The notes under the pieces were generated by a model. It worked only from the letters and a program-made list of their open reading frames with translations, searched no databases and had not been told where the DNA came from. The position numbers and the translations under genes were made by a program. From an uncultured bacterium (GTDB lineage Bacteria > Auribacterota > JACPWU01): DNA of 32,000 nt. The stretch lies in the NCBI GenBank assembly GCA_964640155.1, contig CAZXEQ010000002.1:30001-62000 (forward strand). The letters are read 5' to 3'. Below are positions 1,006 to 28,288 of this stretch, piece by piece (position 1 is the stretch's first letter; the number at the start of each line of letters is the position of its first letter).

Positions 1006-1033
1006 ACCTTTGTTCCTTTTTTATTAACATATT

Positions 1034-3919: not shown

Positions 3920-3934
3920 TGCACACCTCTTAAG

Positions 3935-5931: not shown

Positions 5932-5955
5932 TTTTTCTCCCTCTTCATTCTATCT

Positions 5956-9672: not shown

Positions 9673-10406
9673 GATTTTTGTCCTCGAACAAATTTTAAAA
9701 TAACAGGAGAACCTAATAAAGCAGTCAAACCTAAAAGTCTTGCGCATCTTTCTAAAAAATGAGACAAGCCAGGAAGCTTTAAAACTCGATGAAGCACCAT
9801 AGGAAAGAAAAACTCAGGGAATCGAGACTTCAGAGAAAAACCCTGTGACTCAAAAATTTTTCGCAATTGTTGCTTTTTAAAACAGGTGTAGACACGCGTA
9901 TTCCCCTCTAAGTGCTTTTTAAATTTAAAAAGTAGTGGGGTCACAGAATTAATACTTTGCATCTCAGGATAATCAAAAATCACACATTTTTTAGAAACAC
10001 GACATAACTCTTGAATGAGTTTCTCCCATTGAACCACATGAGGAAGAAGACGAAAGCTCATAACAACATCGAAAGTTTGATCGGGGAAAGGCAAATTTAA
10101 CACATTTCCAACTTCAAATAAGCAATCTCCCTTATCTAAAAACCTTTGAATTCTTGTTTTGCAAATATCTGCACTTCCCAGAACAGTCACTTTAAATCCC
10201 TCTTGAACAAGAGCCTCTGTCATCTGTCCATGACCGCCCCCAACATCTAAAATACTGGCGTGGGAATAGGAAGAAAGCATTTTCAAGGTTGCTTGTTCTT
10301 GAATCTTTAAAAACCAATCTCCCACAGCACCTGAAAAACGATGTGCATAATCTTCAGAGGAAGTTTCAATATCTGCTGTTTCTGGGAAATTATTTTCGTA
10401 ACTCAT
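9669..10406 (-). CDS. Class I SAM-dependent methyltransferase
   Basis: 245 aa. Motif I is ILDVGGGHGQMTEAL, followed by VTVLGS and FDVVMSFRLLPHV. ATG 10406-10404 overlaps the TGA 10405-10403 of the upstream gene (ATGA). Confidence 0.8.
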   Translation of the reverse strand: MSYENNFPETADIETSSEDYAHRFSGAVGDWFLKIQEQATLKMLSSYSHASILDVGGGHGQMTEALVQEGFKVTVLGSADICKTRIQRFLDKGDCLFEVGNVLNLPFPDQTFDVVMSFRLLPHVVQWEKLIQELCRVSKKCVIFDYPEMQSINSVTPLLFKFKKHLEGNTRVYTCFKKQQLRKIFESQGFSLKSRFPEFFFPMVLHRVLKLPGLSHFLERCARLLGLTALLGSPVILKFVRGQKS

Positions 10407-13400
10407 TTCTCTACTTCAATCCTATCGATACAACAATCGACCCCCTCCTCAAATCGAACAGGAAATTCCAAATCTGCATCTTGATCTAAAGTAAATTCAA
10501 GCCGAAAAGGCTGATAGTTCTGTGTTTCTGTAAAATCTTTCAATCGAAGCGTTTTTTGAGCAATGATTTTTTGCCCATAATTTGTAGTCACAAGAAGAGA
10601 AACAACAGAAGAGTTGACATGTTTTTTTAATGTTAGATCAGAAACTTTTATCCAGAATGTTGCTTTATAATTTCCCTTTGAAAAGGGCGTGTAGGGACCA
10701 AAAAGAACATCTCTGCGGGGACTTCCCTGATTCACTTTAACCACTTTCCCTCCAGAAGCCTGCGCATCTGCTACAACAGCAGCTTGGCAATAAAGATCTT
10801 CTGCTTCCAAAAGCCAAGGATTTTTTGAAATATTTAAAAACCCAATGGATATTCGATCTAAGCTAATCTTGCCTACTCCCCCATAAACGACCTTGGGCTC
10901 AATCTCTGCATAATCAGACACTTCAAAGGGGACGATAAAATCTTTAAAGCTTTCTTTTTGAAACTCACTGGAATCAAAGTCTTTTGCCACAACTAAATAA
11001 TGAGGCTCTTTATTCCATAGTTCAAATCTCAAAACGCCTTTACTCTCTGCTAAAAATTCTCCCTTCAAGCGAAATAAAGCCTGATAATGCCCGCTAGGAT
11101 ACCCTCTCGCTTTTTGAGATAAAAGCCATTCTCCTATCCCTGCTTCAGCATCTACAGTCACAACTTTGCCATTCGATGCATTCTCCAATAGTTCTTCGTA
11201 TCCTTTTTTTCTTTTTAAGCTTTCTCCTTGCGTTAAACTAAAAACAGGGCTGATGATTTTAGAAGATCCTTTCAACAAATCAGGCTCTTCTAACACTTCA
11301 AAAAGAAAAAGACTTCCCTCCTGCTTTATAAACTTTAAGAATCCATTATCTTTAAGTCTAGAGATTGTAAAATGAGCGGGGAAAGGGCTTACTTTCCCTG
11401 GAAATGCCTCTTCATGAAAAACGACAAATTTTACTTCAAACTCCCTTAACAGTTTCCATATCTTTTCATTCACCTCTCCTGTGTTCATAGCAGATAATGG
11501 ATAAAACACCTTTTTGACGTAATCCCATGAAATAGCTGGCCTGTATCCATTGATCATAGGCAACCGATGACGTGTTGCATAATATTGATAAATAGAAGAC
11601 CACGAACTTTCCCCAGGCCAAATAGGAAGAGCTAAAACTCTTTTATGGTTTAAGTTTTTTTGAACATGTTCATAAACAGAGTGGCCACTGGGCATCAAAC
11701 TAATACCAAGAGATTTTGCAGGAAGATAATCGATGCAAATGCCTATCATAAGAAAAATGGCGATCCACATCGATTTTTTTTTAAGCAAAGAAAAACATGC
11801 TTTTGCACCAAAAGCAGCTAAAAGAGATAAAAACAAAAAAGATAAATAGAGAATGCGTGTTGGGACACGAATATAATTAAAATGAGGAACGTTCTGATAG
11901 AAAAAATTATACAGGGGAAATATGTGATCCAATCTAGGTCCAAATGAAAGATAATAGGTTAGAAGAAATAATCCTGCTGAAATTCCAAAAATAACCTTTT
12001 CCTTCAGTGAAAAACTTTTCCTTAAAAACTTATACATTAAAAATCCTGCTAATGCTAAAAGAACAGAAAAAATACCAGGATAAACAAAAAACTCACCATT
12101 CTCATGGAAACGCTTAAAAATATCTGTCATCGATGGGGAATAAAGTTTGATAATCCCTACAGATCTCCCACCAGAAACCACAGAAGAATCTAATTTTGTT
12201 ATTTTTTCAAACATAAGCCACCCCACAAGCGTCGTAGCTGGAATGACAAAAGCAATAAACACTTTGACCAGGTTTTTTTTAAACTCAAGAGTGATTCCTG
12301 AATTAGAAAAGATGCTCTTTTGATGCTTCATCATAAAATAGACTTTCAAACCTAAGCACATTCCAAAGACGATCATCATTAAGTGAGATCCTAATCCTTC
12401 CATTTCATAAAAAAACTGAATGGGATAGATCAAAAAAAGAATAAAAGGGAGAAAACTTATTGCATCATTTTTTAAAGATTTTTCTATATTCTGCCCACTT
12501 AATTTAGAGAAAAGCCAACTGTAGAAAATCCAACACCCTCCTATCAAAACCATTCCGAGAGGAATCAGACTCCAAGCCCACATAGAAGAAGAGCGACGAA
12601 ACATCCATAAACTTAAGAATAAACCAAAAATGAAACTTAAAACTCCTATCCCCCATGTCCATCGAGACGACCTGAATTGTTTTAACTCATTTTTATCCTT
12701 TTGAGAAATCTCCCAATCAACAGTAGATGAAGAAACGCGATGTAATCTAAAAAGAGGAAGAATTAAAAATATTCCTAAAAATACGGGCAAATAAAAAGCC
12801 ACATGAAATTCATCCATGCCTAGACCCAGAAAAATGAGGCCCGAGATAAACCCTAAAAACCAATTTTCTTTTTGTAGTGCTCGAGCATAAATATAAATAA
12901 TCCAAGGGATAAAGAAATGTGTAAAACCTCCTGGATGACCTCCTAATAAATGCACAACTCGATAAGGATAAAGCGCATAAATAGTCGCAGCAATCAGAGC
13001 TGCCCATCCTACCCTAGTCCACAGATAGGCTAATCGATACATTCCCAATCCAGCCAAAGGAAATGTTAATAGAACTAATAAGTTATAACCCCCCTGATCC
13101 CCCAAAAGAAGCGCAAAAGCGGAGAAAAAAAATGCTAAGGGAATATATTGGTTATTAAAATGCTCCTGTAAGCCATATTTGGGAACATTGAGCTGATAGG
13201 GATCTTTAAAAAAAGGCGTATGCCCCTGAAGAGCATCCTTAAAAAGCCACATATAGTAAAAAAGTTGAATATAATCACCCTGTTCTAAAGTGACAACGGG
13301 CTTATTTTCAGCAGAAGCATGCGTGTAAGGAAGCCCTCGATCAAAATACCGAATCAAGGGAAAGGTATAAAGAACTCCAAGAATAAGAAAATAGAGAAGA

Positions 13401-13429
13401 AGGCCAGATGTAATAATCAATTTTTTCAT
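10403..13429 (-). CDS. Large polytopic membrane protein, YfhO/GT-C-like, with two tandem C-terminal beta-sandwich (CBM-like) modules
   Basis: 1008 aa with ATG at 13429. Residues 1 to ~590 are rich in hydrophobic helices (more than 10), with an early acidic loop (LEQGDYIQLFYYMW). The soluble middle region is paralogous to the 683-aa protein at 19423..21474. The last ~280 aa form two related ~140-aa modules carrying AS(N/G)GKVV.V, G.Y.A.F..K and D(R)I motifs. The second opens with LLEAEDLY..ADAQASGGKVVKV, which is reminiscent of CBM6/35-type modules. Confidence 0.6.
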   Translation of the reverse strand: MKKLIITSGLLLYFLILGVLYTFPLIRYFDRGLPYTHASAENKPVVTLEQGDYIQLFYYMWLFKDALQGHTPFFKDPYQLNVPKYGLQEHFNNQYIPLAFFFSAFALLLGDQGGYNLLVLLTFPLAGLGMYRLAYLWTRVGWAALIAATIYALYPYRVVHLLGGHPGGFTHFFIPWIIYIYARALQKENWFLGFISGLIFLGLGMDEFHVAFYLPVFLGIFLILPLFRLHRVSSSTVDWEISQKDKNELKQFRSSRWTWGIGVLSFIFGLFLSLWMFRRSSSMWAWSLIPLGMVLIGGCWIFYSWLFSKLSGQNIEKSLKNDAISFLPFILFLIYPIQFFYEMEGLGSHLMMIVFGMCLGLKVYFMMKHQKSIFSNSGITLEFKKNLVKVFIAFVIPATTLVGWLMFEKITKLDSSVVSGGRSVGIIKLYSPSMTDIFKRFHENGEFFVYPGIFSVLLALAGFLMYKFLRKSFSLKEKVIFGISAGLFLLTYYLSFGPRLDHIFPLYNFFYQNVPHFNYIRVPTRILYLSFLFLSLLAAFGAKACFSLLKKKSMWIAIFLMIGICIDYLPAKSLGISLMPSGHSVYEHVQKNLNHKRVLALPIWPGESSWSSIYQYYATRHRLPMINGYRPAISWDYVKKVFYPLSAMNTGEVNEKIWKLLREFEVKFVVFHEEAFPGKVSPFPAHFTISRLKDNGFLKFIKQEGSLFLFEVLEEPDLLKGSSKIISPVFSLTQGESLKRKKGYEELLENASNGKVVTVDAEAGIGEWLLSQKARGYPSGHYQALFRLKGEFLAESKGVLRFELWNKEPHYLVVAKDFDSSEFQKESFKDFIVPFEVSDYAEIEPKVVYGGVGKISLDRISIGFLNISKNPWLLEAEDLYCQAAVVADAQASGGKVVKVNQGSPRRDVLFGPYTPFSKGNYKATFWIKVSDLTLKKHVNSSVVSLLVTTNYGQKIIAQKTLRLKDFTETQNYQPFRLEFTLDQDADLEFPVRFEEGVDCCIDRIEVEK

Positions 13430-13475
13430 AGGAAAGTTTCATTCACTAACAAGTCCGTGGTTTACTAGGCCATTC

Positions 13476-13504
13476 ATTATAATGTAAGCCAGTACTATTG
13501 AGAA
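13476..13504 (-). promoter_or_regulatory. Candidate sigma70-type promoter for the 1008-aa gene
   Basis: On the minus strand there is TTCTCA (13504-13499), a 17-nt spacer, then a perfect TATAAT (13481-13476), about 45 nt upstream of the ATG at 13429. It lies in a 190-bp spacer. Hexamers like these arise easily in AT-rich spacer DNA, so this is tentative. Confidence 0.3.
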
Positions 13505-13619
13505 ACAACGGTCCTGCAGTGTATCCTGCCATTGCAACTTGTTCAAGCCTTTTCGAGTGGGAGGTATTTTTATATTAAAGTAATGATCAGATTATTAGAT
13601 AAGATCAAAGTCCTATTCA

Positions 13620-15623
13620 TTAGCCGTTGCTATAGAGCTCAATCTCACTCACATTCCAATGAGACGGAGCAGGATCTTCTATTTCAATCCTAAATCCGTC
13701 TGCTTCGATAGAAGGAAATCGAATCGTTTGAAGATGATCCCCATATACAGGATGGCCATTTTTGAAGATAAACGGATCCAACTTAAAAGAAACGTGGGAG
13801 ACAACCTCTTGCCATTCCTTCTGGGTATGAGCGAAAACATTGATAGAGGTAGCCCAGTGATGTCTATCCCCATTATAAAAAAAAGAAATTCGATTTATAG
13901 ATCTGTTCTTTTGAAGCATTCCTTGTATCCACATCCCTTTCTTTTGAGGTTCATAACTTCCCCAGGAAGTAAAATAGTCCCCATCGTTTAATCTTTTTAA
14001 AGAGGCTTTGTTAGAACTAGCGGACAAAACAATCTCTTCTTCTAGCATTAATTGATCTTGCAAAGACATTTCGTGTTTAAAGTTAAAATAAATTTCAAAA
14101 TCTCCACAAATTTCCTTTTCATAGGAAACCCCCATCGTTGAAAGATCTTGTTCAAAATCTTGAATTGTTTCAAAACGCATATTTCCAGAGAGGCATAAGA
14201 TATAGGCTACATTCCTTGCACAATCCACAGAGTCTTTATAAAGCAGTGGCCAGCCTAAAAATCTTCGATTAAAAGGTTCGCTACAAATAATCCTCTCATC
14301 CGTTTCATAAGGGATTCGGTTGGCCACCCAAAAACCTGCATAGCAATAGCGAATTTGATGATCATCAAGAAAATGAATCACAGGTTGAAGATTAAATATG
14401 GCCGCATGCTTCTTTGCAAAATCAGGTTGCTTCCAATGATGTATGATTTGAATTGAAGCCGATAAATTAAAGACTGAAAGAAAACAAGCAAAAGCACCTA
14501 TTATATATTTTAGAGGGCTTGGACACTTTGCATATAAATCACTTAAGATAAAAGGGAAACAAACCACCATTGGGAGAAGATACCTGTACGATGAATGCTG
14601 AGAACGTATATCCAATATGAAGAAAATCTGACACAACCAAGATGCTGCAACAAAAACATCATTGATTTCAAGAGTAGGCCACTTTAATCTTATAAATCTT
14701 CTAGAAAAAAGAATCATTCCGAGAACACTAGCCCAAACTAAAATCAATAAATAAACTCCCATAAATATTTTAATAAACATGTTTGGGAGAAAATCTAACA
14801 CTCGTCCGATGTCTGGGAAAATAGGAGGAGTTAACCCCATCACACCTGGGAGCGTGCTTTCCATCATCGAAAGCCACATGGGAAAAGCTTCATGCCAATG
14901 TCGGGTCCCCATAATGCTCTGATAAGCGCCGGGGTCCATGGTGAAGGCCAATCCATACGGTATTAACCCTATGATGCCCCCAATGGTGTAAAAGCTTGTT
15001 CTCTTTAAAACACTCTGCCAATCCCATCCCAAACAAATCCATATTCCAACAGGCATCACTATACATAAAGAAAGCATATGACTGCTAAAGCTAAGCCCTC
15101 CTATCAAGCCCGCCAGAGCAACCCAGAAAAGATTTCTCTTTGTAACACTTATCCATCCCAAAAGAAGATTGATGCTTAAAAATAAACATAATGAACTATA
15201 CCCGGGCAAAGCATATCCTGATTGTAAGATAAGCCAATAACTTGACGGAAATAACAAAAGCAACATTGCAGGCCAACCTTTTTTAATGAGCCCCTGACGG
15301 GAAAGAAGAATCAAAAAAACAAAAAGGGTTATTAAGCCCAATAAAAAGGCCATGTATCTTGCGCCCAAAGCATTTCGAGGGAGGGTATTCACCAAAGGGG
15401 CCAGTAGGTAAGATTCGATCGGGAACAAATAAGGTTGACCTGGAAATAAAACAGGAAGTTCTGAATGATTTAAAATTTTTTTTGCCTGTAAAACAGCAGA
15501 TGCTTCATCCACAGAAGCTGGAACCCTAGAAATACTAATCACAAAAAGCGTACATCTTAAAATAAGAGCAGCTATTAAAATAAAAAGAATAACAAATCGA
15601 TTTAAAAACTTCATTTTAATCAA
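13620..15623 (-). CDS. GT-C glycosyltransferase (ArnT/PMT, GT39/83-like) fused to a C-terminal F5/8 type C (discoidin) domain
   Basis: 667 aa. The start is TTG 15623 (GGAG 8 nt upstream) or ATG 15614. The polytopic N-terminal ~400 aa carry an acidic first-loop motif (SRVPASVDEASAVLQAKKIL) like ArnT/PMT enzymes. The C-terminal ~125 aa match the discoidin pattern: LNDGDYFTSWGS...MWIQGML..RSINRISFFY......FRIEIEDPAPSHWNVSEIELY. Confidence 0.65.
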   Translation of the reverse strand: MIKMKFLNRFVILFILIAALILRCTLFVISISRVPASVDEASAVLQAKKILNHSELPVLFPGQPYLFPIESYLLAPLVNTLPRNALGARYMAFLLGLITLFVFLILLSRQGLIKKGWPAMLLLLFPSSYWLILQSGYALPGYSSLCLFLSINLLLGWISVTKRNLFWVALAGLIGGLSFSSHMLSLCIVMPVGIWICLGWDWQSVLKRTSFYTIGGIIGLIPYGLAFTMDPGAYQSIMGTRHWHEAFPMWLSMMESTLPGVMGLTPPIFPDIGRVLDFLPNMFIKIFMGVYLLILVWASVLGMILFSRRFIRLKWPTLEINDVFVAASWLCQIFFILDIRSQHSSYRYLLPMVVCFPFILSDLYAKCPSPLKYIIGAFACFLSVFNLSASIQIIHHWKQPDFAKKHAAIFNLQPVIHFLDDHQIRYCYAGFWVANRIPYETDERIICSEPFNRRFLGWPLLYKDSVDCARNVAYILCLSGNMRFETIQDFEQDLSTMGVSYEKEICGDFEIYFNFKHEMSLQDQLMLEEEIVLSASSNKASLKRLNDGDYFTSWGSYEPQKKGMWIQGMLQKNRSINRISFFYNGDRHHWATSINVFAHTQKEWQEVVSHVSFKLDPFIFKNGHPVYGDHLQTIRFPSIEADGFRIEIEDPAPSHWNVSEIELYSNG

Positions 15624-15717
15624 AAGAGAAACTCCTTCTTTTTAAGCCTTAAACACACAGAGTCGATAGGAGTGTAACAAAATAGAAAATAAAAATAAGA
15701 AGGGGGATTTCCATCAA

Positions 15718-15744
15718 AATGAATAGGGATTTTCCCGATTCATT
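15718..15744 (-). terminator. Hairpin downstream of the GT2 gene (possible weak intrinsic terminator or operator)
   Basis: On the minus strand the sequence is AATGAAT-C-GGGA-AAA-TCCC-T-ATTCATT. That gives 7+4 bp with one C/T mismatch, followed by TTGATGG. The stem is A/T-rich and the U-tract is poor. Confidence 0.2.
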
Positions 15745-15829
15745 AAGAGGAATGCAAGAATTGACACCATCTCTTAAGAAGAACTCTAAACAGAGCAAAA
15801 ATATTTCTTTATCTTTAATAAATCATTTA

Positions 15830-16513: not shown

Positions 16514-16596
16514 GAACACCTCCACTATAACTTTTAAAACATATAAGTCGAATACGTTCCCATTTAGAGAATGCACATCATATCAAGCATTGACTA

Positions 16597-18267
16597 TCAC
16601 TTCAAGTCATCTAAAGAAAGGGGTTTTGCTTGATAAACTTGAATATGAGATTGAATGATTTTTTTCTTTTCTGGAGGAAAAGCATTTTCATCTATGACCA
16701 AAGTACGAAAACTCTCCACACTATCCAACTTTAAATCAAAACCTTCTAATAAAGGGGTTTTCTGAAATGAGAAAAAATAAACTTGTCCACCCTCTTTTAA
16801 CCATCGTTGCATCTCTAATTTAAGATCAACATCCAAATATTCTGATCCAGTCCAGTAAATCTCACTCCCATAAACCCCTTTCAAAACAGACACAATCTTT
16901 TCATCATCAGAGAGAATTAAAGCATTCTTTAAAAACCCTTTTCTAACTCCATCATAAAAATTTAATATGCCTGCTCCATCTCTTAGCCAAAGAACATCCT
17001 TAAAAGAATAAAGATTGATCCCAGATAAGATTATAATCCCCACAATAGCAACCATTTTAGCCAATTTACCCAAACGAGATACCATGCCTAAAAGCCCCCC
17101 AACCCACAATGAAAAAATGGGAATGAGAGAAGGAATCCAAGGTCCCATAGCAATAAGCGAATTAGATTTTGTAAGAGGCTGAAACATCTCAAAAATAGGA
17201 TAAAAAAGAAGCAGAATCATTAAACCTGAAAATTCTTGCTTCATTTCTTTCAAAAAAAATATCAAAACTCCTCCAACAACTAAAAAAAGAAGAGGAAGTG
17301 AGAAAAAATTCATCAATTGAGAAAAAGTATTCGTTCGCAATCCAATCCACAAAATTCCAATTAAAGCAAAACTCAAAATTAGTTTTTCAAGGATTTTTAA
17401 TCGAGAGTTTACTGCCATCCCATCCAAAACAAAGCCAACGGCTCCAAGAATGAGAAGAGACCCCAATCCTGTTTTAGTCATACTTGCTAAAATAAAAGAA
17501 ATGAAAGCTAAAATCCAAAAACGCTTATCATTTTGTTGAGACACAAGTGAAATAAGATAGAAAGATCCTATCACCAAAGCCTGTGCAAGCGAAAATCCTT
17601 CTGGTAGACGACAAAACCAAAGATTCGTAAAGTTCGTAAGAAGAAAAAATGTTACACCCATGGCACCCAATCGTCCAAACATTCTATCTGCAAGTAAAAA
17701 TAATGCGCCCATCGAGAGAACACCAAAAACAGGAGATATAAGTAAACTCAACTTTAACCCAAAAAAACAATTGGCCCAAGCTAACCAAACGCACGCAAGT
17801 CCCCCTTCACGGACCAAGCATTCAGGAGAGAACGTCTTTACATGTAAAGTCCCTTCACGAACCAGTTGGGCCGCTTGTGTAAAAGTAAATCCCACTCTCT
17901 CAGAAGGCCACATCATAAAAAATAAGGCAGCTAAAAAAATAATGAGTACACAAAAGTCTTTCCAGACCAAAGGCCTTTTCATCAAACTAATTTGGAACCT
18001 GAATCGGCGAGGCAGAAACATCAGAAAAGATACAATGACAATAGAAAATACTAAATTTTGAGCAGTAAAAACGCCGAAAAGAGCACATCCCAAAAGTAAA
18101 ACAGAACTTAAGACAACGCTTAGCAGTACACGTAAAAAAAGCTGCTCAGTGAAATGTATGAGAGAAATTTTCAAAAAAGTTCGAGTCAGAACATATCCTG
18201 GCAGAAAAAAGAAAAGAGGAAGAACTAAAACAAAATTTACAACAAGAGTTAACTGATCATGAATCAC
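16597..18267 (-). CDS. Polytopic integral membrane protein of unknown family (possible GT-C glycosyltransferase or glycan polymerase) with a ~130-aa soluble C-terminus
   Basis: 556 aa, hydrophobic almost throughout residues 1-420 (more than 10 helices), then a soluble tail (WLRDGAGILNFYDG...). GTG 18267-18265 overlaps the TGA 18266-18264 of the aminotransferase (GTGA). I could assign no diagnostic catalytic motif by eye. Confidence 0.5.
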   Translation of the reverse strand: MIHDQLTLVVNFVLVLPLFFFLPGYVLTRTFLKISLIHFTEQLFLRVLLSVVLSSVLLLGCALFGVFTAQNLVFSIVIVSFLMFLPRRFRFQISLMKRPLVWKDFCVLIIFLAALFFMMWPSERVGFTFTQAAQLVREGTLHVKTFSPECLVREGGLACVWLAWANCFFGLKLSLLISPVFGVLSMGALFLLADRMFGRLGAMGVTFFLLTNFTNLWFCRLPEGFSLAQALVIGSFYLISLVSQQNDKRFWILAFISFILASMTKTGLGSLLILGAVGFVLDGMAVNSRLKILEKLILSFALIGILWIGLRTNTFSQLMNFFSLPLLFLVVGGVLIFFLKEMKQEFSGLMILLLFYPIFEMFQPLTKSNSLIAMGPWIPSLIPIFSLWVGGLLGMVSRLGKLAKMVAIVGIIILSGINLYSFKDVLWLRDGAGILNFYDGVRKGFLKNALILSDDEKIVSVLKGVYGSEIYWTGSEYLDVDLKLEMQRWLKEGGQVYFFSFQKTPLLEGFDLKLDSVESFRTLVIDENAFPPEKKKIIQSHIQVYQAKPLSLDDLK

Positions 18268-19382: not shown

Positions 19383-19422
19383 ATGCTTATACCTTAATTA
19401 TCAATATTCAACTACCTAAACA

Positions 19423-21474
19423 CTAAGATTCTCGAGCTAAAATTTGCAAACCCGAAAAGGCAACGCTTTTTTCCTTTTTATTTACCCCCGGCTCACATTT
19501 TAAATCAATTACATTTAAACCTTGAGCAAACTCAATATTTCGCAAAACAATTTCTTTAATCTTATCCGGTTCTATCTCCCATTCTCCAAGCAGCTGATTC
19601 TGAAAACCAATCGTTACAGCTCTTTTAACCAAGGATGAAGTTAGCAGAAACTTAAGTTGATATACACATTTTCCTGATTCTCTTCGATAAAAAGCAAAAC
19701 CTCCATTCCCAGAAAACCAAGCCCACTCTTTTTCTCCTAATCCTTTTTCTGGCAAATATGCGTTCATACTAACCCAAGTAAGATCTTTGGGCTCAGCAAC
19801 AATCTCAAATACAAACGCTTCTGGAAAATCTTTCACAAGCTTTAGACCGGACGCTTTTAAAAATCTTTCATAAATATTTTTTCGATAAAATTCTTTATGA
19901 AAAATTGCATATTTAATTCCTAAACTGGCTAACCGTTCTGTTACTTCTGGCTCCCAAAGATTTCTATTTGATTTCAAAAGCCACCCTGGAGGAGTTTTAT
20001 CCGGAGCTCCATTCATCATACGTTTAGCATGAAATCTTTGATAAGACAAATATTGATAATGTCGCTTGTCATCAGCTCCAAAAATAGGATATTCAGCGAT
20101 CATAATACCTCCTGACTGCTGACCCAACCATTGATAAACAGGAGGAACTGTCGAAACATCTACATTCCTAATAGGAGGAACAAGCGTATATTCAAAAACC
20201 AAGCCTAAAAGCAAAAAAGAAAAGCAAACAATTCGCATTTGAATACGAGAAAATTTTTCAAGCAAACATTTCAATCCCCATCCAGCTAAAACGGTTACAC
20301 TCAAAGAAACAAAAACACCTGCTCTTGCATATACCCGAAACATGGGGAAGAACTTATATAGAAGATGTGAGGGCATATATAACTTTATAAACTTTAAATC
20401 TATTTCTGGAGGGAAAGAGAAAATCATCATTCCAATCCCACACACCATCATCGCTGAAAGAAAAAAAGATTTTTCTTTAGGCAAACTTTTTCTTTCCTTC
20501 CACCAACGAAAAATACCATAACCGGCTAAAGAAAGAGGAATCACCCCTAAGTATAGAGTTCTTTCAAAGAAATGCCTCCCCCCTAATTTATTCGAAATCC
20601 GTTCGGAGAAAGATCCAAAAATAGGGTGTAACTCTGACGGGACAAAATAATCCCAACACCTTGCAGCATAACTAAACACATCATGATAATTTCTAACCAA
20701 TCCTACTTGCTCATGTTCAGACACAGGGATAAAATGAAACATTCCCAAAATCGCCTTATAAATAAATGGAATAGAAACTAAAAAGCTCACAAAAAGAATG
20801 CCTAAAATACCCATCCCCTTTTTAAAAACAGTTCTGTCTCTTCTTTCAAAAACAAGGAAGCGATACCCAATAAAAATCAAGCTAAAAAAAAATGCAAAAT
20901 AACCGTAATAAGTATACGAAAGAACAGTCACAGCAAATAAAAATCCTGTTAATATCCCATTCTTCAAAGTAGACTGCTCTAGATATTTCCAGAGGCAAAA
21001 CACATAGAGAACAATCCATTGAGCATGAGCATTCCCTAAATGTCCCGCCAAAGTTTGGGAAATGAGATTTGGAGAAAAACCATAAACAATCCCCGAAAAG
21101 AGGCCGATCCAACCACTCTTAGTAAGACCATAAACTAACCATGACACTGTTAATGCTGAAAAAGTAATGCCTAAAACACAAAACAAATTATATGCAACTA
21201 CTTCATTAAAAAGGATCTCTAATAAAATACTTTGTCCAAAAAGAATAGGAAGAACATGTTGTAGCATACCATGTGAAATTTCAAATGGAGCTCCTGTAAG
21301 AGAATTCAAACGAACTAAATCATTCAATATTTTTGAGTTCTGCCAAAAACCGTACAATCCACCCATAGTGTCTTCAGGCCAAGCGGTAAGACCAAAAATA
21401 TGCGTAAAAAAATAAGCTGGAAACGGGAAAAGATATAAAAGGGTTAAAAGAAAGAAAAAAAGGAATTTTTTCAA
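19423..21474 (-). CDS. Polytopic membrane protein, YfhO/GT-C-like, paralog of the 1008-aa protein
   Basis: 683 aa. TTG 21474-21472 overlaps the TGA 21473-21471 of the upstream gene. No ATG is available without deleting the N-terminal helix. Its C-terminal soluble region aligns with the 1008-aa protein: IMIAEYPIFG..HYQYLSYQRFHAKRMMNGA vs VLALPIWPG..IYQYYATRHRLPMINGY; LGIKYAIFHKEF vs FEVKFVVFHEEAF; FVFEIVAEP vs FLFEVLEEP. Confidence 0.6.
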   Translation of the reverse strand: MKKFLFFFLLTLLYLFPFPAYFFTHIFGLTAWPEDTMGGLYGFWQNSKILNDLVRLNSLTGAPFEISHGMLQHVLPILFGQSILLEILFNEVVAYNLFCVLGITFSALTVSWLVYGLTKSGWIGLFSGIVYGFSPNLISQTLAGHLGNAHAQWIVLYVFCLWKYLEQSTLKNGILTGFLFAVTVLSYTYYGYFAFFFSLIFIGYRFLVFERRDRTVFKKGMGILGILFVSFLVSIPFIYKAILGMFHFIPVSEHEQVGLVRNYHDVFSYAARCWDYFVPSELHPIFGSFSERISNKLGGRHFFERTLYLGVIPLSLAGYGIFRWWKERKSLPKEKSFFLSAMMVCGIGMMIFSFPPEIDLKFIKLYMPSHLLYKFFPMFRVYARAGVFVSLSVTVLAGWGLKCLLEKFSRIQMRIVCFSFLLLGLVFEYTLVPPIRNVDVSTVPPVYQWLGQQSGGIMIAEYPIFGADDKRHYQYLSYQRFHAKRMMNGAPDKTPPGWLLKSNRNLWEPEVTERLASLGIKYAIFHKEFYRKNIYERFLKASGLKLVKDFPEAFVFEIVAEPKDLTWVSMNAYLPEKGLGEKEWAWFSGNGGFAFYRRESGKCVYQLKFLLTSSLVKRAVTIGFQNQLLGEWEIEPDKIKEIVLRNIEFAQGLNVIDLKCEPGVNKKEKSVAFSGLQILARES

Positions 21475-22154
21475 GTTTTATTCTCTGGTATCTTCCTGGC
21501 AAAAAAAACCTCCCCGCACTGAATTCCCACCCCTATAAAAAGAAACACATAAATTCCTTGAGCAAGATCCTCAACAATAGGGAGATTCAGACTGATTAAA
21601 ACAGAACAGGATAAAATTAAAAATAAAGCAGCACCGATAAAATAAGATGAAGGATTTTCAATAAGATAAAGATGCGTTTTCTCTAACTTTTGTTCAAAAT
21701 CCTTTGAAGGGGAAAGCCATTTTCTAAAAACGTAAAGAAGTAAGTAATACACAGATAAAGAGACCACCACAAGATTCACAAATAACAAGCAGGAAAAAGT
21801 TTTTAATCCAAACCCCCAGTTAGCTCCCTTCCAAATAATCCACGTACAAGAAGGAATAGCAATTGTTAAAGCTGTTCCTAAAAACCATTTTCTGCTTTTC
21901 TTCTTATATAAAAGGAGCAAGAGGATAGAACTTCCAAGACTAAAAATGCTGTAAAACATCAACCACTCACCTTGAAATCTTGCTAAAAACTTAAGAGCGT
22001 TATGGGAAAGACCTGGTTCCTTTATAACAATACTGAAATATGGAAATAAAAAAATTGTTAGTTTAAAGGTTAAATAAGCGCAAAAAATATTAAAAAAAAC
22101 CATCCCTATGTGAATTGAATCCCAAAACAAATAACGAAGCTCCCTAGAAGTCAT
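21471..22154 (-). CDS. Small (~6 TM) integral membrane protein with no recognisable family
   Basis: 227 aa. The ATG at 22154 is preceded by AAAGGA. Several long hydrophobic segments are present. Its stop is translationally coupled (TTGA) to the 683-aa membrane protein. Confidence 0.5.
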   Translation of the reverse strand: MTSRELRYLFWDSIHIGMVFFNIFCAYLTFKLTIFLFPYFSIVIKEPGLSHNALKFLARFQGEWLMFYSIFSLGSSILLLLLYKKKSRKWFLGTALTIAIPSCTWIIWKGANWGFGLKTFSCLLFVNLVVVSLSVYYLLLYVFRKWLSPSKDFEQKLEKTHLYLIENPSSYFIGAALFLILSCSVLISLNLPIVEDLAQGIYVFLFIGVGIQCGEVFFARKIPENKT

Positions 22155-22173
22155 CTAACAATTCCTTTATCTC

Positions 22174-23130: not shown

Positions 23131-23131
23131 T

Positions 23132-26100
23132 TCATGATACCTCTCTTCTTTTTAACCTTAAAAAACAATAACCCAGACACCCTAAAGCAGTTATAAAGGT
23201 AATACTAGACACCATCACCCCCAACTCAAACCACCTCTGCAGAGTAAACTCAATCACAATCTGAAAATCTTTTCCTTGAAATTCAGGCTTCACATTCACC
23301 CACCATCCATTTGCAAAACCATTTACTACTATATGACAAGGAATCTCTATTTTCTGATCATGATCTCTCCAGAAATTTAACAAAGCTGACCATGACTCAC
23401 CTTTATTGGGAAATGATTCCTGGGGGTTATCCATTCTAATATAAGCTTTCCAATCCGGATGGAAAGATTCACTAAAAACCATCCAAAAAGGGCCATGCGC
23501 ATTTTTAACGTTAACAACATAGCGTGTCAGATTGAGCTTTTCAAAATTTAAAATGGGCCGGGAAGAACTATATTGTTTTTCAACTTTTGGAAGAAGCATC
23601 AACCAATTCCATTGAAATTTCTTACTTCTTAAAAATTCAAGAGAGTGGTGATTATTCATTGAAAATGGAGTCCAAAAATCAAATTCAAAACGATTTTTAC
23701 TAACTCTCTTAATCTGAGATGGATTTACTCGTGTAGATACACCCTTTAAACGGAAAAGATCAATATTTTTATCTTTTTCATTAAATTCTAGTTTTATTCT
23801 TTTATACTCTGCAAACTGGTTTGAACATAACTCATAGATAAAAACTGCTTTCTTTTCTCCAGGCTTACTAAATTTAATTGTATACCATCTTTGGAATTGT
23901 TCTTTATTGTCAACTTCTTTCAAAATTTCCTTTAAGTTAATATGAACCATCTTCCTTTTATTATCTATAGGAATTGTTGGGAGATCTCGTACAATCTCAA
24001 CAAATTGATTATCATCTCCTCCTTTTCTAAAACCAAAAGAAGCTTTAACACGATCACTTTCATAATTCGTTAAAATAAGATTTACATTTTCTTTTTTTCG
24101 AATATCCAGATAAGGTTTTTTTCTAACCTTAAAGCAGAATCGCTCATCTAAAGGAATATTCTCTAATTTACTCACAAAGTAAAAAATTCCATCTTTAAGA
24201 TAACACCATCCACTTTCAGAATCTCTTTTTAAACTTAGGTCATATTTCACTTGAAGTGGTAAACGGTGGATCATTTTTAAACCATACAATTCAAAAAGGT
24301 ACCATCCTTTCTTTTTCTTTGAGCAGTCAACCCCCCAAATCTTATGAGGTAAAATTTGTACACCCGTCAAATAATAATGCTTTCTGCCCGGAAATTCGTC
24401 CTGAACTTTCCTTAGGAGGTTCACAAAAAATGTCTCTTTTTGATCAGAGGTTTTCTTAGGATAACTTGTGCGCGGGATAAGTAAATACTCCTGTTTATCA
24501 TTTTCTATCTGCACTCGAAAAACAACTTGAATTGTTTGAACAGAAGGATCCTGCAACTTATAAGTTAAGGCCAAAAATGGATATTTTTTTAAATCAATCC
24601 GTTCCCTCCTTTTAAAAGCTACCTTACTTTCAATATTTTTCTGTGATTGAACATGATAATTTATTTTTATAAATTCATCGGCATAAGAATCAAAGTAGGC
24701 TTTAAGTTTTAAAACATCATTCTCCCAAATCTTTAAAAACTTACATCCTATCGCCTCATAGTCAACACCTTTGGACACCTTCTCATTCTGCCTCAAAAAA
24801 CCTTGATTCTTTAAAACCGGATTTAAAATAACATTAAAAAAATTTCTTTTCATTCGCACGAAAGGTTCTTTCAGAGAAAAACACCCCTTAAATTGATACT
24901 CTACATCTTGCGCAAAGAGAAAAATTTTTTTTATTTCTTTATTCAAAACTTCCGCATTATCATTTTTTGAGGGATATATTAAAAAGACATAAAAATAATT
25001 TTTGAACCTCTCTCGCACCTTTTTAATCTTTTGTTTTGGAATTAATAAAAATTCACATTCTCTTTGGGCTTTGATGCACCTAAAAATTTTTTTCTGAACA
25101 TCCTGAATCTTTACTTCATGCTTACCACTCTCTAACCTTATGTTTGCTCTTTTTATCCACTCATCACGAAGCTTATTATTTGATTTGCCTTTTCGTAACG
25201 CAAGCCCATCGATTTGAATAGGAACCTTATTATATTTTTGAAGATTCCATATTTCATACTCGCAAGATATTTTTATATCAAACTCTGTCTTCATGCCTCT
25301 CTTAAGCTTAATTAAAAAGACATCGTCCTTTCGGTGAATTTTAAAATCTTTAGTTTTCTTCTGGACAAAAAGATCCACAGCTCCATTCTTTAAATAATCC
25401 AAAACAAAATTTTCCAAATTTTTATTTACTAATAAGATCGGACTTTGTTTTAAATCAAGGTCTGCAGAATTAGCCAATAGTTCCTCAATTCTATGTTTAT
25501 TTTGTTCCATAAAAATGAATGCTGGTTGATTCCCAAGATAAGAAGCTTCAGCCAAAGGTAACAGGCTTCTCATCTCACCTGAAATGATACTTGCACCAGA
25601 AGCAGCATAAATTTTTGGAAGAACATGCTGATTTTTAAAAAAAACGATATGCTTCCCCCCATAGAGCTTAGTGAGATATGGGACGCTCTTTAGTCCATGC
25701 ACAATTCTTTTTACAGAAGGGAAAACATTACTTGAATACATATTTAAGCGAGCAATAATGTATTTAATATTTGCCAAATTGAATAAAGAAGGAGGTCTTC
25801 CTTCTACAGTTAGATTCATTTCTTGTTCTAGAAGTTCATCAAAAACTTTCAGAGAACCTAGATTCCTTCGATCTGCTTTATTACCAACAGTCCCAGGAAC
25901 AAGCGAAAACCCTGAAAAAGTATCAGCAAATTCATGAAAAGCCCCACAAAACTTCTTCCCGTTTAGTAGCCCCACAAATCCCCCGGCAGGAAGATAAAGC
26001 GCCTTAAACATTTCTGAACCCTTCAACATTTTCTCAACATATAGATATTCTCCTGGAAATTTGTGGGTTCTAAGCCTAATATCCATGCCTTCTTTGGGAG

Positions 26101-27304
26101 TTGCATAAAGCTCCCCTTTCCAAAAAGGATAAGAATTACAACCCACGAGAAGAGCTAACATACATCCCAAAAATTTACTTGTGTAATTAGGTTTAGAAAT
26201 TACTCCTCCTTTTCGTCTATGAACAAGACTTTCTATTGCATAAGCAATAAGGACCGAATACCCTAAAGAAGAAATAATTATAAACCGGCTTGGATCTCGT
26301 ATAACAATAGTAAAAGGGATAAGATAGTAAATCTTCTGGAGAGAATAAAATCCATACGGAATAAACGTAAGAACAACAAGAAACAATATGATCTTATTCT
26401 TTTTTTTCAGTAATAAACTCAGATAGGAAAGGAAAGCTGGTATGAACGTTAAAAAAAGTAACGAAGGAGGAAAAGTTGTTTCATATTGAAAATTAAAAAG
26501 ACTCCCCCACAATCTCAAAATATTCAGAAAACTTAATCTCTGCCCTAACGGTACATCCGTACCAGAAGCTGTCTGACTGATCATGCCACTTGAGTGAGCT
26601 AATAGAGGAGCAATCCATGATCCATTCATAAGAAAAAAAATAGAAAATACAATAATAAACGCCTTTATAGCCGCTACAAATTCTTTCAAAGAACTAACTA
26701 TAAAAAGAGATAATAAGAAAAAAACAATTGCATACCAAACAACAGCTTGTGAAGCCAAACAAAATCCAAAAAAATATATGATCCCTGCAAGCACTGCATA
26801 GCTTTTTCTGTCTTCTCTGATCGCCTTTGAAAATAATATTAAAGCAAAAGGCAACAAAGCTCCCGACAGAAGAACAAAAGCCCATCCCATGATTGTATAA
26901 TTAAAAAAAAGTGGTGTTGTAATGAAGTAGAAACCACCCAGCAAAGAGGGGAAAATCCTTATCTGAAGAAATCTGCACCAAAAATAAACTGCAAATCCAG
27001 AAAAAGTAGGGACAAATAACAATAAAAACTTTGTAACAATCTCTCCCTCAATATGTAACTTTGCAAGAAAACCAAAAAAGAGATGAATTGGAAGCATGAT
27101 GTAAGATTGAGCAACCCCTAACAAGCTACCAACATTTGTCCAAAGGTATAAGCCATTTTCAGCCCAAACCTCTGTTTGCTTTATTGTAATAGGGAATAGC
27201 CAATCCCCTCCCAGAACAACACCAGAAGAGACAAGAATTCTACGGCAGAAAAAAGCAGAGAATATAAGAAACAAAACAAGAACAGGAGCTTCTCTCAGTT
27301 TCAT
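23132..27304 (-). CDS. Giant polytopic membrane protein with AftD/YfhO-like (GT-C) architecture
   Basis: 1390 aa with ATG at 27304. The N-terminal ~400 aa are polytopic, with an early GGDWLFP...LYLWTNVGSLLG loop. A ~950-aa Lys-rich soluble region follows, ending in the pattern FSESFHPDWKAYI...HIVVNGFANGWWVNV...IVIEFTLQRWFELG. A single C-terminal TM helix (VMVSSITFITALGCLGYCFL) closes the protein. That terminal pattern is what I associate with YfhO/DUF3367 (AftD-type) proteins. Confidence 0.6.
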   Translation of the reverse strand: MKLREAPVLVLFLIFSAFFCRRILVSSGVVLGGDWLFPITIKQTEVWAENGLYLWTNVGSLLGVAQSYIMLPIHLFFGFLAKLHIEGEIVTKFLLLFVPTFSGFAVYFWCRFLQIRIFPSLLGGFYFITTPLFFNYTIMGWAFVLLSGALLPFALILFSKAIREDRKSYAVLAGIIYFFGFCLASQAVVWYAIVFFLLSLFIVSSLKEFVAAIKAFIIVFSIFFLMNGSWIAPLLAHSSGMISQTASGTDVPLGQRLSFLNILRLWGSLFNFQYETTFPPSLLFLTFIPAFLSYLSLLLKKKNKIILFLVVLTFIPYGFYSLQKIYYLIPFTIVIRDPSRFIIISSLGYSVLIAYAIESLVHRRKGGVISKPNYTSKFLGCMLALLVGCNSYPFWKGELYATPKEGMDIRLRTHKFPGEYLYVEKMLKGSEMFKALYLPAGGFVGLLNGKKFCGAFHEFADTFSGFSLVPGTVGNKADRRNLGSLKVFDELLEQEMNLTVEGRPPSLFNLANIKYIIARLNMYSSNVFPSVKRIVHGLKSVPYLTKLYGGKHIVFFKNQHVLPKIYAASGASIISGEMRSLLPLAEASYLGNQPAFIFMEQNKHRIEELLANSADLDLKQSPILLVNKNLENFVLDYLKNGAVDLFVQKKTKDFKIHRKDDVFLIKLKRGMKTEFDIKISCEYEIWNLQKYNKVPIQIDGLALRKGKSNNKLRDEWIKRANIRLESGKHEVKIQDVQKKIFRCIKAQRECEFLLIPKQKIKKVRERFKNYFYVFLIYPSKNDNAEVLNKEIKKIFLFAQDVEYQFKGCFSLKEPFVRMKRNFFNVILNPVLKNQGFLRQNEKVSKGVDYEAIGCKFLKIWENDVLKLKAYFDSYADEFIKINYHVQSQKNIESKVAFKRRERIDLKKYPFLALTYKLQDPSVQTIQVVFRVQIENDKQEYLLIPRTSYPKKTSDQKETFFVNLLRKVQDEFPGRKHYYLTGVQILPHKIWGVDCSKKKKGWYLFELYGLKMIHRLPLQVKYDLSLKRDSESGWCYLKDGIFYFVSKLENIPLDERFCFKVRKKPYLDIRKKENVNLILTNYESDRVKASFGFRKGGDDNQFVEIVRDLPTIPIDNKRKMVHINLKEILKEVDNKEQFQRWYTIKFSKPGEKKAVFIYELCSNQFAEYKRIKLEFNEKDKNIDLFRLKGVSTRVNPSQIKRVSKNRFEFDFWTPFSMNNHHSLEFLRSKKFQWNWLMLLPKVEKQYSSSRPILNFEKLNLTRYVVNVKNAHGPFWMVFSESFHPDWKAYIRMDNPQESFPNKGESWSALLNFWRDHDQKIEIPCHIVVNGFANGWWVNVKPEFQGKDFQIVIEFTLQRWFELGVMVSSITFITALGCLGYCFLRLKRREVS

Positions 27305-27328
27305 AAATACTATTTTGTCCTAGTTAGA

Positions 27329-28288
27329 TTAGAGACGCTGCTTACCTGTTAAGAAACCCTTCAAGTAAAAAAATGAATACCTAAATAGAATATAGATATT
27401 AACAAAAGGGAGAATTAAAACTCTTGGATTTTTTCGATCCAAAATAAACATATTTTTTGTGATAAAAATAGAATAAATAAGAACAAGAGGAACAAAAAAA
27501 AGCCTTAGAGAGCGAATCAGCAATCCTAATACAAGAACAAATCGTGCATTTATAAAAATCAAGTCTTTAAGAGGAACCTCTTTAAAATTCTTTCTTAGAC
27601 AAGCACCCCCTGCTTCAGCATATTGACTTTCTTTATAAATGTATCTTTTAACTCCAAAATTCTTCCCACTGTACAAAAGATGTTCTACGATCGTATTGAC
27701 GCTAACAATGGAGCCCTCCTTTTGTAATCGAATATATAAGTCTCCGTCTTCTCCTGCTGTACGAAAAGTCTTCTCATCAAATAAGCCAATATTAAGCAAT
27801 GCCAATCTTTTAAAACAATTAAACATTCCATTACGGCCTGGACACAATTTATTTAAATGGCGAGATAAAAAACTTTTTTCCCAAAAACTATATGATTCAT
27901 TCTCTGTCAAACACCATTTCACATGAGAGTACGTGCCTACAACATCTTTAGACTCTTTGAATGGCTTAACAAGCTTTTCAATGCCATCTTCATCACAAAT
28001 AACAATGTCAGAATGGAGCGTAATAATAAGATCTGTTTGAGCCAATCGAATACATTCATTGTACGAAAAAGAAAGACCCAAATCTTTTTCATGATAAATA
28101 TTAACCACAGAATGGCGAGAGTTTTGTTTATATTCTTCCATGATAGAATGAGAAGAATCTTTTGATTGATTATCTACCAAAAAAACTTGAGAAATGGGAT
28201 AGTTTTGTTTCTCAAGATTACTCAGCGTTTTCCGCAATGTTTTTTCGGAGTTATAAACAGGAATAATAACAGTTACATCGTAAGGCAT
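27329..28288 (-). CDS. GT2 (GT-A fold) glycosyltransferase with C-terminal transmembrane helices
   Basis: 319 aa. The N-terminus VTVIIPVYNSEKTLRKTL..NYP...VFLVDNQSKDSS is canonical GT2. The C-terminal ~80 aa are hydrophobic (FVLVLGLLIRSLRLFFVPLVLIYSIF; ILPFVNIYILFRYSFFYL). Confidence 0.8.
   Translation of the reverse strand: MPYDVTVIIPVYNSEKTLRKTLSNLEKQNYPISQVFLVDNQSKDSSHSIMEEYKQNSRHSVVNIYHEKDLGLSFSYNECIRLAQTDLIITLHSDIVICDEDGIEKLVKPFKESKDVVGTYSHVKWCLTENESYSFWEKSFLSRHLNKLCPGRNGMFNCFKRLALLNIGLFDEKTFRTAGEDGDLYIRLQKEGSIVSVNTIVEHLLYSGKNFGVKRYIYKESQYAEAGGACLRKNFKEVPLKDLIFINARFVLVLGLLIRSLRLFFVPLVLIYSIFITKNMFILDRKNPRVLILPFVNIYILFRYSFFYLKGFLTGKQRL

Follow-up and report, generated by a model that had tools for sequence, protein, structure and literature searches.

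Five large membrane proteins best read as GT-C-fold glycosyltransferases in a predicted envelope-glycan locus of an uncultured bacterium

Several described systems encode glycosyltransferases of the GT-C fold together with the enzyme that supplies their donor. In the three-component systems (GtrA/GtrB/GtrC; ArnC/ArnEF/ArnT; CsbB/GtcA/YfhO; GT136) a polyprenyl-phosphate-sugar (Pol-P-sugar) synthase of family GT2 and a GT-C enzyme are encoded together (PMC11127046, PMC8035078), and in ArnB/ArnC/ArnT a nucleotide-sugar pathway stands next to the synthase. The Emb/Aft arabinan system likewise has several GT-Cs clustered with a lipid-donor synthase. Here we analysed 32,000 nt of DNA from an uncultured bacterium (assembly GCA_964640155.1, contig CAZXEQ010000002.1, positions 30,001 to 62,000; this whole stretch is called the window), in which positions 10403-28288 encode polytopic proteins of 1390, 683, 556, 667 (664) and 1008 amino acids (aa). 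The best reading of all five is as GT-C-fold transferases of two lineages (1390/683/1008 and 556/667). We consider it probable that these genes form the core of a conserved locus for an envelope glycan or glycoconjugate, which would carry out extracytoplasmic, lipid-phosphate-sugar-dependent glycosylation by an expanded version of the three-component (Gtr/Arn/Aft-type) logic.

Systems of this kind are known; what is new is the unclassified GT-C families, a partner membrane protein of 227 aa, the association with a cytidine diphosphate (CDP)-dideoxyhexose pathway and multiple methyltransferases, and the phylogenetic setting. With ArnB/ArnC/ArnT the window shares the nucleotide-sugar pathway beside the synthase, and periplasmic domains of the carbohydrate-binding module (CBM) type on the transferases are also shared. 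Three-component systems have one GT-C, whereas the window has five from at least two lineages, and they have a GtrA, SMR or MATE flippase where the window has the conserved 227-aa membrane protein. The likely donor sugars of the window are a 3,6-dideoxyhexose and amino and methylated sugars, none of which is known as a Pol-P-linked donor, and no backbone pathway is in view.

Classification of the large membrane proteins

Pfam and NCBIfam gave no match for the 1390-aa protein, PDB sequence searches gave nothing relevant either with the single sequence or with the family profile, and only 22 relatives were found in a search of 5.8 billion proteins. By hydropathy the N-terminal block of transmembrane (TM) segments ends near residue 395, and behind it lie ~960 soluble aa (~950 aa in an earlier note on this DNA) and one C-terminal TM segment at ~1360-1382. 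A conserved C-terminal domain is at ~1250-1355. An AlphaFold2 (AF2) model of residues 1-600, made from a multiple sequence alignment (MSA) with 20 homologs, had a predicted local distance difference test score (pLDDT) of 78.9 and a pTM of 0.82, and was helical through residue 395. When this model was compared to the PDB with Foldseek, the top match was AftD of M. abscessus (6w98; E=6.9e-11, TMq 0.64), followed by STT3/OST, DPY19, AftA, PglB, ArnT, ALG3, Pmt and EmbA/B. The list was led by 28 GT-C chains, and MFS and other transporters appeared only at E>0.05 and with a probability <0.3. Based on the model, the 1390-aa protein is best read as a GT-C-fold glycosyltransferase, and the analogy with AftD that the earlier note had drawn was apt for this protein.

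In AftD (PDB 6W98) as in the 1390-aa protein, both of them ~1380-1390 aa long, a GT-C TM domain at the N-terminus is followed by a very long periplasmic region and a C-terminal TM anchor. The conserved Asp past TM1, which is D41 in AftD, corresponds to D34 in the 1390 family, where it is invariant in a GGDW motif eight residues past TM1. In the family alignment E275, R336, R340, D408 and E424 are near-invariant, a set reminiscent of the residues K39, D41, E251, K361 and D474 that are essential in AftD (bioRxiv 10.1101/2019.12.22.885152). AftD has three CBMs in its periplasmic region, a multi-helix C-terminal TM region and a four-helix bundle that binds acyl carrier protein (same source), whereas in the 1390-aa protein the C-terminal TM region is one helix and no CBM is detectable, none having been found in residues 560-1390 by Pfam scan at E<=10. 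Identity in the structural alignment was 14%, and the DUF3367/AftD Pfam model matched neither the 1390-aa protein nor any of 20 family members. The donor of AftD is decaprenyl-P-arabinose, whereas that of the 1390-aa protein is probably a hexose derivative, and the hosts of the 1390 family are non-actinobacterial metagenome-assembled genomes (MAGs).

The 683-aa and 1008-aa proteins belong with the 1390-aa protein. They matched each other by BLAST (E ~1e-8), and their families were aligned by hhalign with a probability of 98.9% (E=1e-17). The 683 family was in turn linked to the 1390 family at 97.6% (E=4e-12, 429 columns) and the 1008 family to it at 95.4%, so that by sequence profile the three are one remote paralog group of an AftD-like lineage. 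Both proteins also matched PMT_2 below the gathering cut-off of 26.1 bits (18.7 bits for 683 aa, 16.8 bits for 1008 aa), and D35 of the first loop is invariant across 11 sequences of the 683/1008 superfamily. The C-terminus of the 683-aa protein had no match in a Pfam scan at E<=10, and nothing relevant came from PDB sequences when they were searched with the 1008-family profile or with the large proteins singly. Structure modelling of the 1008-aa protein gave a weak model (pLDDT 47.6 overall). Its significant Foldseek matches were to GT-Cs only, but they carry little weight because the MSA had been seeded with the 1390 family, together with the 683-aa protein. This protein has a periplasmic alpha/beta region and two C-terminal tandem repeats of ~140 aa (728-866 and 867-1008; hhalign 77.7%, E=2e-5; window 10403-11245), which share the pattern 'E.E.L....v.d..AS.GKVV.V...G.Y.A.F.lK...DRI.v'. 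The repeats are probably beta-sandwich carbohydrate-binding modules. The lectin-like end that the earlier note had assigned to the protein is unconfirmed, as the evidence consists of the repeats and a CBM_4_9 match at E=0.08, in a part of the model with pLDDT <50.

The other lineage consists of the 556-aa and 667-aa proteins. The 556 family is rare: of 1.84 billion cluster representatives ~10 are closely related to it, and ~50 more distant matches were found. PMT_2 of Pfam was found in 24 of 36 aligned relatives (7 close, 29 distant) and PMT or STT3 in a few, and the close family was aligned to the distant relatives that carry PMT_2 with an hhalign probability of 100% (E=6e-62). Its residue E123 is near-invariant (>=90%) and follows the fourth TM segment, three extra N-terminal TM segments standing before it. 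At the C-terminus Pfam at E<=10 gave only a chance-level match to Ctf19_RWD1 (E=0.27). For the 667-aa protein 34 homologs were found. The distant ones P0060-62 (E=1e-38 to 4e-32) carry PF13231 and PF00754, and P0059 is annotated as ArnT-like. In this family PMT_2 was detected in 7/34 and F5_F8_type_C in 24/34 (best E=3.9e-19), the family profile matched CBM32 structures (E=1e-5), and D36 and E37 directly past TM1 are invariant (DE motif). The discoidin end that the earlier note had proposed for the 667-aa protein is thereby borne out at family level, the window protein itself scoring 19.7 bits with F5_F8_type_C_2, for which the cut-off is 27.8. Neither these two window proteins nor the 1390-aa protein matched PMT_2 at E<=0.01. 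The 556-aa and 667-aa proteins are best read as a PMT_2/ArnT-like GT-C lineage, in which PMT_2 membership applies at superfamily level only. As compared to the PMT_2 enzymes (PF13231; CAZy GT39/GT83-type), to which both families connect by sequence and with which the 667 family has the DE motif past TM1 in common, the 556 family adds its three N-terminal TM segments and the 667 family its discoidin domain.

Negative controls were included for the profile comparisons. The 667 profile gave 0.5-1.6% against the 683, 1008 and 1390 profiles, and the GT-C profiles gave 0.1-25% against the 227-aa membrane family; therefore TM composition alone does not yield high hhalign scores. What points to an outer-face location of the acidic residues in loop 1 is the short, positively charged N-termini, and what suggests that a Pol-P-linked sugar donor is used on that face is the co-location with a GT2 of the DPM1/ArnC class. 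In the Pfam scans YfhO (PF09586) matched no window protein and no scanned homolog set. The description of the five as GT-C/YfhO/AftD-like in the earlier note thus stands for the GT-C class, but not for YfhO or DUF3367 as Pfam families, and its "GT-C paralogs" are five GT-Cs of two groups and not one paralog family. None of them was classified as a transporter or as a Wzy- or ligase-type polymerase by the profile and structure searches that it had asked for. The number of GT-Cs had also been thought unusual, but it has a precedent: the M. tuberculosis aftA-embCAB-aftB region has a matching density, with five GT-Cs in ~20 kb. Related MAG loci typically carry 2-3.

Donor supply, export genes and the 227-aa membrane protein

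The GT2 gene that lies between the 556-aa and 667-aa genes is by class a predicted Pol-P-sugar synthase. Its matches in the PDB were the dolichol-phosphate mannose synthase (DPMS) of P. furiosus (5mlz, E=5.6e-19 over residues 1-206), ArnC (E=7e-14 over the full domain) and GtrB sll0501 (E=6e-13), and in NCBIfam AglJ (3e-34), Dol-P-hexose transferase and PpgS. As DPMS, ArnC and GtrB are the best solved relatives, the DPM1/GtrB/ArnC type given to it earlier was well chosen. Its orthologs in two syntenic loci (L015 and L016) are 227 aa long, and Met22, which would give the same length, is most likely the start; the "N-terminal TM" of the longer frame is therefore probably an artefact of ORF (open reading frame) extension. 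The 319-aa GT2 at the other end of the cluster (Glycos_transf_2, E=1.5e-25) has two C-terminal TM segments at ~253-308. This TM pair and its length are ArnC/GtrB-like, and by sequence its role is ambiguous.

Directly upstream of the GT-C cluster (28298-31948 and, past the window end, L001:2-1727) we found, by profile matches, a predicted CDP-3,6-dideoxyhexose pathway, which the earlier note had missed. In common with the Salmonella/Yersinia rfbFGH/asc pathway it has equivalogs of RfbF, RfbG and RfbH, an RmlC/AscE-like cupin and a reductase/epimerase of the short-chain dehydrogenase/reductase (SDR) type. It differs in that no E3 (RfbI/AscD) is adjacent and that RfbH has a 112-aa N-terminal extension, in which a Pfam scan at E<=10 found no domain. 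The Salmonella/Yersinia pathway sits with cytoplasmic O-unit transferases and Wzx/Wzy, whereas the pathway of the window sits with a TM-anchored GT2 and a GT-C. The same module was present in a Bdellovibrionales MAG (L012), where RfbF, a fused RfbG-RfbH (820 aa), an SDR, a 66%-identical cupin, a TM-anchored GT2 (43% identical to the 319-aa protein) and a 1390-family GT-C are encoded together. Its recurrence argues that the dideoxyhexose feeds the pair of TM-anchored GT2 and 1390-type GT-C. Two other assignments in this pathway were tried and rejected. The 546-aa DegT-family protein is the RfbH dehydrase equivalog and not an aminotransferase, and the 152-aa cupin, which matched PF14667 (Polysacc_synt_C; 31.7 bits against 28.7), has no TM segment and is not a Wzx-type flippase.

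Within the cluster, the 372-aa DegT aminotransferase was matched by the PseC and ArnB models below their own cut-offs. Orthologs of the 318-aa methyltransferase (52-68% identical) stand beside 1390 homologs in L006 and L015, and 25-33% identical relatives were found in L007-L014.

Pfam scans of the 22 ORFs of >=150 aa in the window found no Wzx/Polysacc_synt, Wzy_C, Wzz, ABC, Bac_transf or Glycos_transf_4 membrane protein. Similarly, no Wzx, Wzy, Wzz, ABC, ligase or initiating phosphoglycosyltransferase (PGT) gene was present in the extensions of ~1.2 kb upstream and ~2.5 kb downstream (L001, L003) or in the syntenic loci L015-L018, and no small flippase gene is hidden between the genes, because the intergenic gaps are too short. 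The earlier note had recognised none of these genes and had advised a look at the flanks; its observation extends to the flanks of this length and to the four loci.

The 227-aa membrane protein had been called an orphan. This label is refuted by homologs at the same position, between 1390-type and 683-type genes, in several loci (L015:12480-13175, L017:1750-2451, L019:9081-9839 and L020:2308-2949); in another (L005:7844-8587) the homolog adjoins a 1390 homolog. In profile searches over the fetched loci the 1390/227/683 triad was found in the window, L015, L017, L019 and L020, the 1390 and 227 genes in L005, and the 1390 and 683 genes in L014 and L022. The protein is a conserved partner of the AftD-like and 683-type GT-Cs. 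Its family has a conserved C-terminal TM hairpin (PS..F...C..L...AE.LA..Y.LL.IGV) and no Pfam, NCBIfam or PDB relative. It is a candidate flippase or subunit, and the only local candidate for a flippase.

Proposed mechanism and alternatives

In the mechanism that we propose, cytoplasmic enzymes would make CDP-3,6-dideoxyhexose (RfbF/G/H, cupin and SDR), an amino sugar (DegT) and methylated derivatives (up to four methyltransferases that use S-adenosylmethionine, SAM). The DPM1/ArnC-class GT2, and probably also the TM-anchored GT2, would load single sugars onto polyprenyl phosphate, and the lipid-linked donors would be flipped across the membrane, possibly by the 227-aa membrane protein. The five GT-Cs, with a conserved Asp/Glu in the loop after TM1, would then use these donors to glycosylate an acceptor at the outer face of the inner membrane, to which they may be guided by their large periplasmic domains, one discoidin/CBM32 domain among them. 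The analysis itself shows which genes are present, the GT-C classification, the Pol-P-sugar-synthase class of one GT2, the CDP-sugar pathway and the synteny; the identity of the donors, their flipping, the acceptor and the serial action of the five enzymes on one glycan are what we infer. Of the reading in the earlier note, the GT-C class, the Pol-P-sugar synthase and the lack of Wzx/Wzy/ABC genes in the loci inspected are supported, whereas in place of the serial extracytoplasmic assembly that it had suggested, decoration of a glycan made elsewhere or protein O-glycosylation fits equally well.

Several points weigh against the locus as we read it. No GT-C of the window reaches a Pfam or NCBIfam threshold, and the classification combines one good model with transitive, profile-level homology; for the 1008-aa protein the model is weak, and 1390-family sequences had seeded its MSA. 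The 319-aa GT2 is as near to processive or ordinary GT2s as to ArnC, its best PDB match being chondroitin synthase and ArnC covering the N-terminal half only. RfbH is accompanied by no E3 reductase anywhere in the window, and no ORF belongs to a recognisable GtrA, SMR/ArnEF or MATE flippase family. Genes for Wzx, Wzy, ABC or PGT proteins could lie elsewhere on the contig of 501,885 bp, beyond the ~1.2 and ~2.5 kb of flanks inspected.

In one alternative, some of the large membrane proteins would not be glycosyltransferases at all; as flippases, polymerases, ligases or scaffolds they would have no more in common with GT-Cs than an architecture of many helices. The missed thresholds and the low-confidence 1008-aa model speak for this; it is hard to reconcile with the 1390 model, for which only GT-C enzymes came up at significant Foldseek E-values, with profile links that were specific by the negative controls, and with loop-1 acidic residues that fit a GT-C catalytic signature, so that we find it very improbable. 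A more serious alternative accepts the GT-Cs and gives them a different task. The base polymer (O-antigen, lipooligosaccharide (LOS) core or capsule) would be made elsewhere by a Wzx/Wzy or ABC pathway, and the GT-Cs would be independent Gtr/ArnT-like modifiers that each add one sugar. Every three-component system that has been characterised decorates a glycan made beforehand (PMC11127046). The locus is without an initiating PGT, the discoidin domain and the possible CBM-like repeats suggest that an existing glycan is bound, and the flanks inspected span a few kb only. Five GT-Cs with one clear and one possible donor synthase nevertheless exceed the needs of simple decoration, and in four syntenic loci the cluster is kept as a unit with GT4, methyltransferases and sugar pathways, without backbone genes. 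We hold decoration to be possible, if somewhat unlikely.

A protein acceptor would account for the lack of PGT and of Wzx/Wzy. Here the PMT_2-like 556-aa and 667-aa proteins, and possibly the AftD-like enzymes, would O-glycosylate secreted or envelope proteins from Pol-P-sugars, for which actinobacterial Ppm1/Pmt and TfpW of P. aeruginosa are precedents. Both families connect to PMT_2/PMT/STT3 models, and the gene of the DPM1-like GT2 lies directly between theirs. The family link is not specific for the acceptor, however, as PMT_2 includes ArnT-like lipid and glycan transferases; a glycan acceptor is favoured by the discoidin/CBM32 domain and by the AftD-like architecture, and the locus has no obvious gene for a target protein. 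Protein O-glycosylation is therefore a quite unlikely explanation in our view.

Beyond the preferred reading as an expanded three-component locus, a wider proposal can be made, which we regard as rather doubtful. According to it, the 1390/227/683 module across Chlamydiae, Patescibacteria, Bdellovibrionales and other MAGs would form, together with the locus, an undescribed extracytoplasmic assembly line, with at least three GT-C families outside Pfam, a new 227-aa flippase or subunit, Pol-P-linked 3,6-dideoxy, amino or O/N-methylated hexoses, and no Wzx/Wzy, ABC or classical initiating transferase. If our reading of the locus is right, little-studied lineages such as environmental chlamydiae, bacteria of the candidate phyla radiation (CPR) and Bdellovibrionales would carry out most of the remodelling or building of their surface glycans on the outer face of the membrane, with a toolkit for which mycobacterial arabinan is so far the only case described in detail. 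The known set of GT-C families would grow by at least three that have no Pfam model, and these could become new CAZy families, as happened with GT136 in 2024 (PMC11127046). The reading would also single out the 227-aa membrane protein as a possible flippase or accessory subunit, and it predicts donors in which a 3,6-dideoxyhexose is lipid-linked. A full-text literature search for dideoxyhexose co-occurring with GT-C chemistry found no such paper. The predictions are amenable to heterologous expression.

Gene layout, synteny and neighbouring genes

The window has a GC content of ~36%, and all ORFs of >=150 aa are on its minus strand (Table 1). The layout had been given earlier as five polytopic proteins of 1008, 667, 556, 683 and 1390 aa within 18 kb, and both the ORF listing and hydropathy agreed, each of the five having at least 8-12 hydrophobic segments and a large C-terminal soluble region. 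Pfam and NCBIfam scans confirmed two GT2s, an aminotransferase and a methyltransferase among the interleaved genes, the fifth of which encodes the 227-aa membrane protein. Gene overlaps of 4 nt were confirmed at three sites of the cluster (10403-10406, 18264-18267 and 21471-21474), and one more was found outside it at 6840-6843. Promoter and terminator scans of the window gave background levels only, and tRNA and Rfam searches gave no match.

Table 1. Genes of the cluster, of the upstream sugar pathway and of the downstream accessory region (window positions, unless a locus is given).
Feature	Position	Strand	Basis
RfbF glucose-1-phosphate cytidylyltransferase	just past window end, L001:2-751		G1P_cyt_trans 332 bits (cut-off 300)
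SDR	31472 onward (pathway listed to 31948)	-	Pfam/NCBIfam
RmlC/AscE-like cupin, 152 aa	31024-31482	-	Pfam/NCBIfam
CDP-glucose 4,6-dehydratase RfbG	29910-31031	-	NCBIfam CDP_4_6_dhtase 480 bits (cut-off 278)
RfbH dehydrase	28298-29938	-	NCBIfam 724 bits (cut-off 423)
GT2, 319 aa, C-terminal TM segments	27329-28288	-	Pfam and hydropathy
AftD-like GT-C (predicted), 1390 aa	23132-27304	-	AF2/Foldseek
Class-I SAM methyltransferase, 318 aa	22174-23130	-	Methyltransf_23 E=2e-28
Membrane protein, 227 aa, ~5 TM	21471-22154	-	no Pfam/NCBIfam match
GT-C-like transferase (predicted), 683 aa	19423-21474	-	hhalign
DegT/PseC/ArnB-type sugar aminotransferase, 372 aa	18264-19382	-	DegT_DnrJ_EryC1 E=5e-115
PMT_2/ArnT-like GT-C (predicted), 556 aa	16597-18267	-	homologs with PMT_2
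DPM1/ArnC/GtrB-class GT2, 227 aa	15830-16513 (ORF to 16576 from GTG)	-	PDB and NCBIfam matches
PMT_2-like GT-C (predicted) with C-terminal discoidin domain, 667 aa from TTG (664 aa in database version P0029)	13620-15623	-	homologs
GT-C-like transferase (predicted), 1008 aa	10403-13429	-	hhalign
Methyltransferase	9669-10406	-	Pfam, NCBIfam
GT4	8500-9747	-	Pfam, NCBIfam
FAD glycerol-3-phosphate dehydrogenase/oxidase-like (DAO + DAO_C)	6840-8510	-	Pfam, NCBIfam
Methyltransferase	5956-6843	-	Pfam, NCBIfam
SDR epimerase/reductase	4945-5931	-	Pfam, NCBIfam

Gene order as in the window was found in L016 (GCA_041906865.1), with 63-95% identity. L015 had 41-85% identity and no 667-type gene in the 21.5 kb examined of its 26-kb contig, and L017/L018, from a MAG labelled "Chlamydiae bacterium", had 30-65%. 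The accessory genes downstream of the cluster (4945-10406) keep their order in L016 at 79-95% identity, and partly in L017/L018. Relatives of the 1390 family, for which a genome collection was scanned with a 7-sequence alignment, were found in MAGs of Thermodesulfobacteriota, Chlamydiae, Gammaproteobacteria, Patescibacteria and Bdellovibrionales, almost always beside SAM methyltransferases and GT2s.

In L006 (Chlamydiae MAG JACPWU010000036), L005, L010 and L011 the 1390-type gene was present as two adjacent ORFs or two paralogs. Such pairs may reflect gene splitting, frameshifts of the assembly or genuine duplication. The two of L006 flank a methyltransferase that is 52% identical to the 318-aa one of the window. 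At L017:4539-7144 a HipA/HipB-type toxin-antitoxin pair and a nucleotidyltransferase/HEPN pair are inserted between the 683-type and DegT genes.

The glycerol-3-phosphate dehydrogenase/oxidase homolog sits amid GT4, methyltransferase and epimerase genes and is 85% identical in L016; it may point to a glycerol-derived substituent. Further downstream of the glycan cluster (313-4615) are genes for a VTC-domain protein, a 961-aa CotH kinase (Laminin_G_3 + aBig_2) and a DUF4956 membrane protein. Beyond the window start (L003:2123-4615) there is another CotH paralog, with 54% identity. VTC, DUF4956 and CotH also trail the cluster in the Chlamydiae MAG of L017/L018, where they stand behind a pair of PAS histidine kinase and response regulator (L017:17269-19969).

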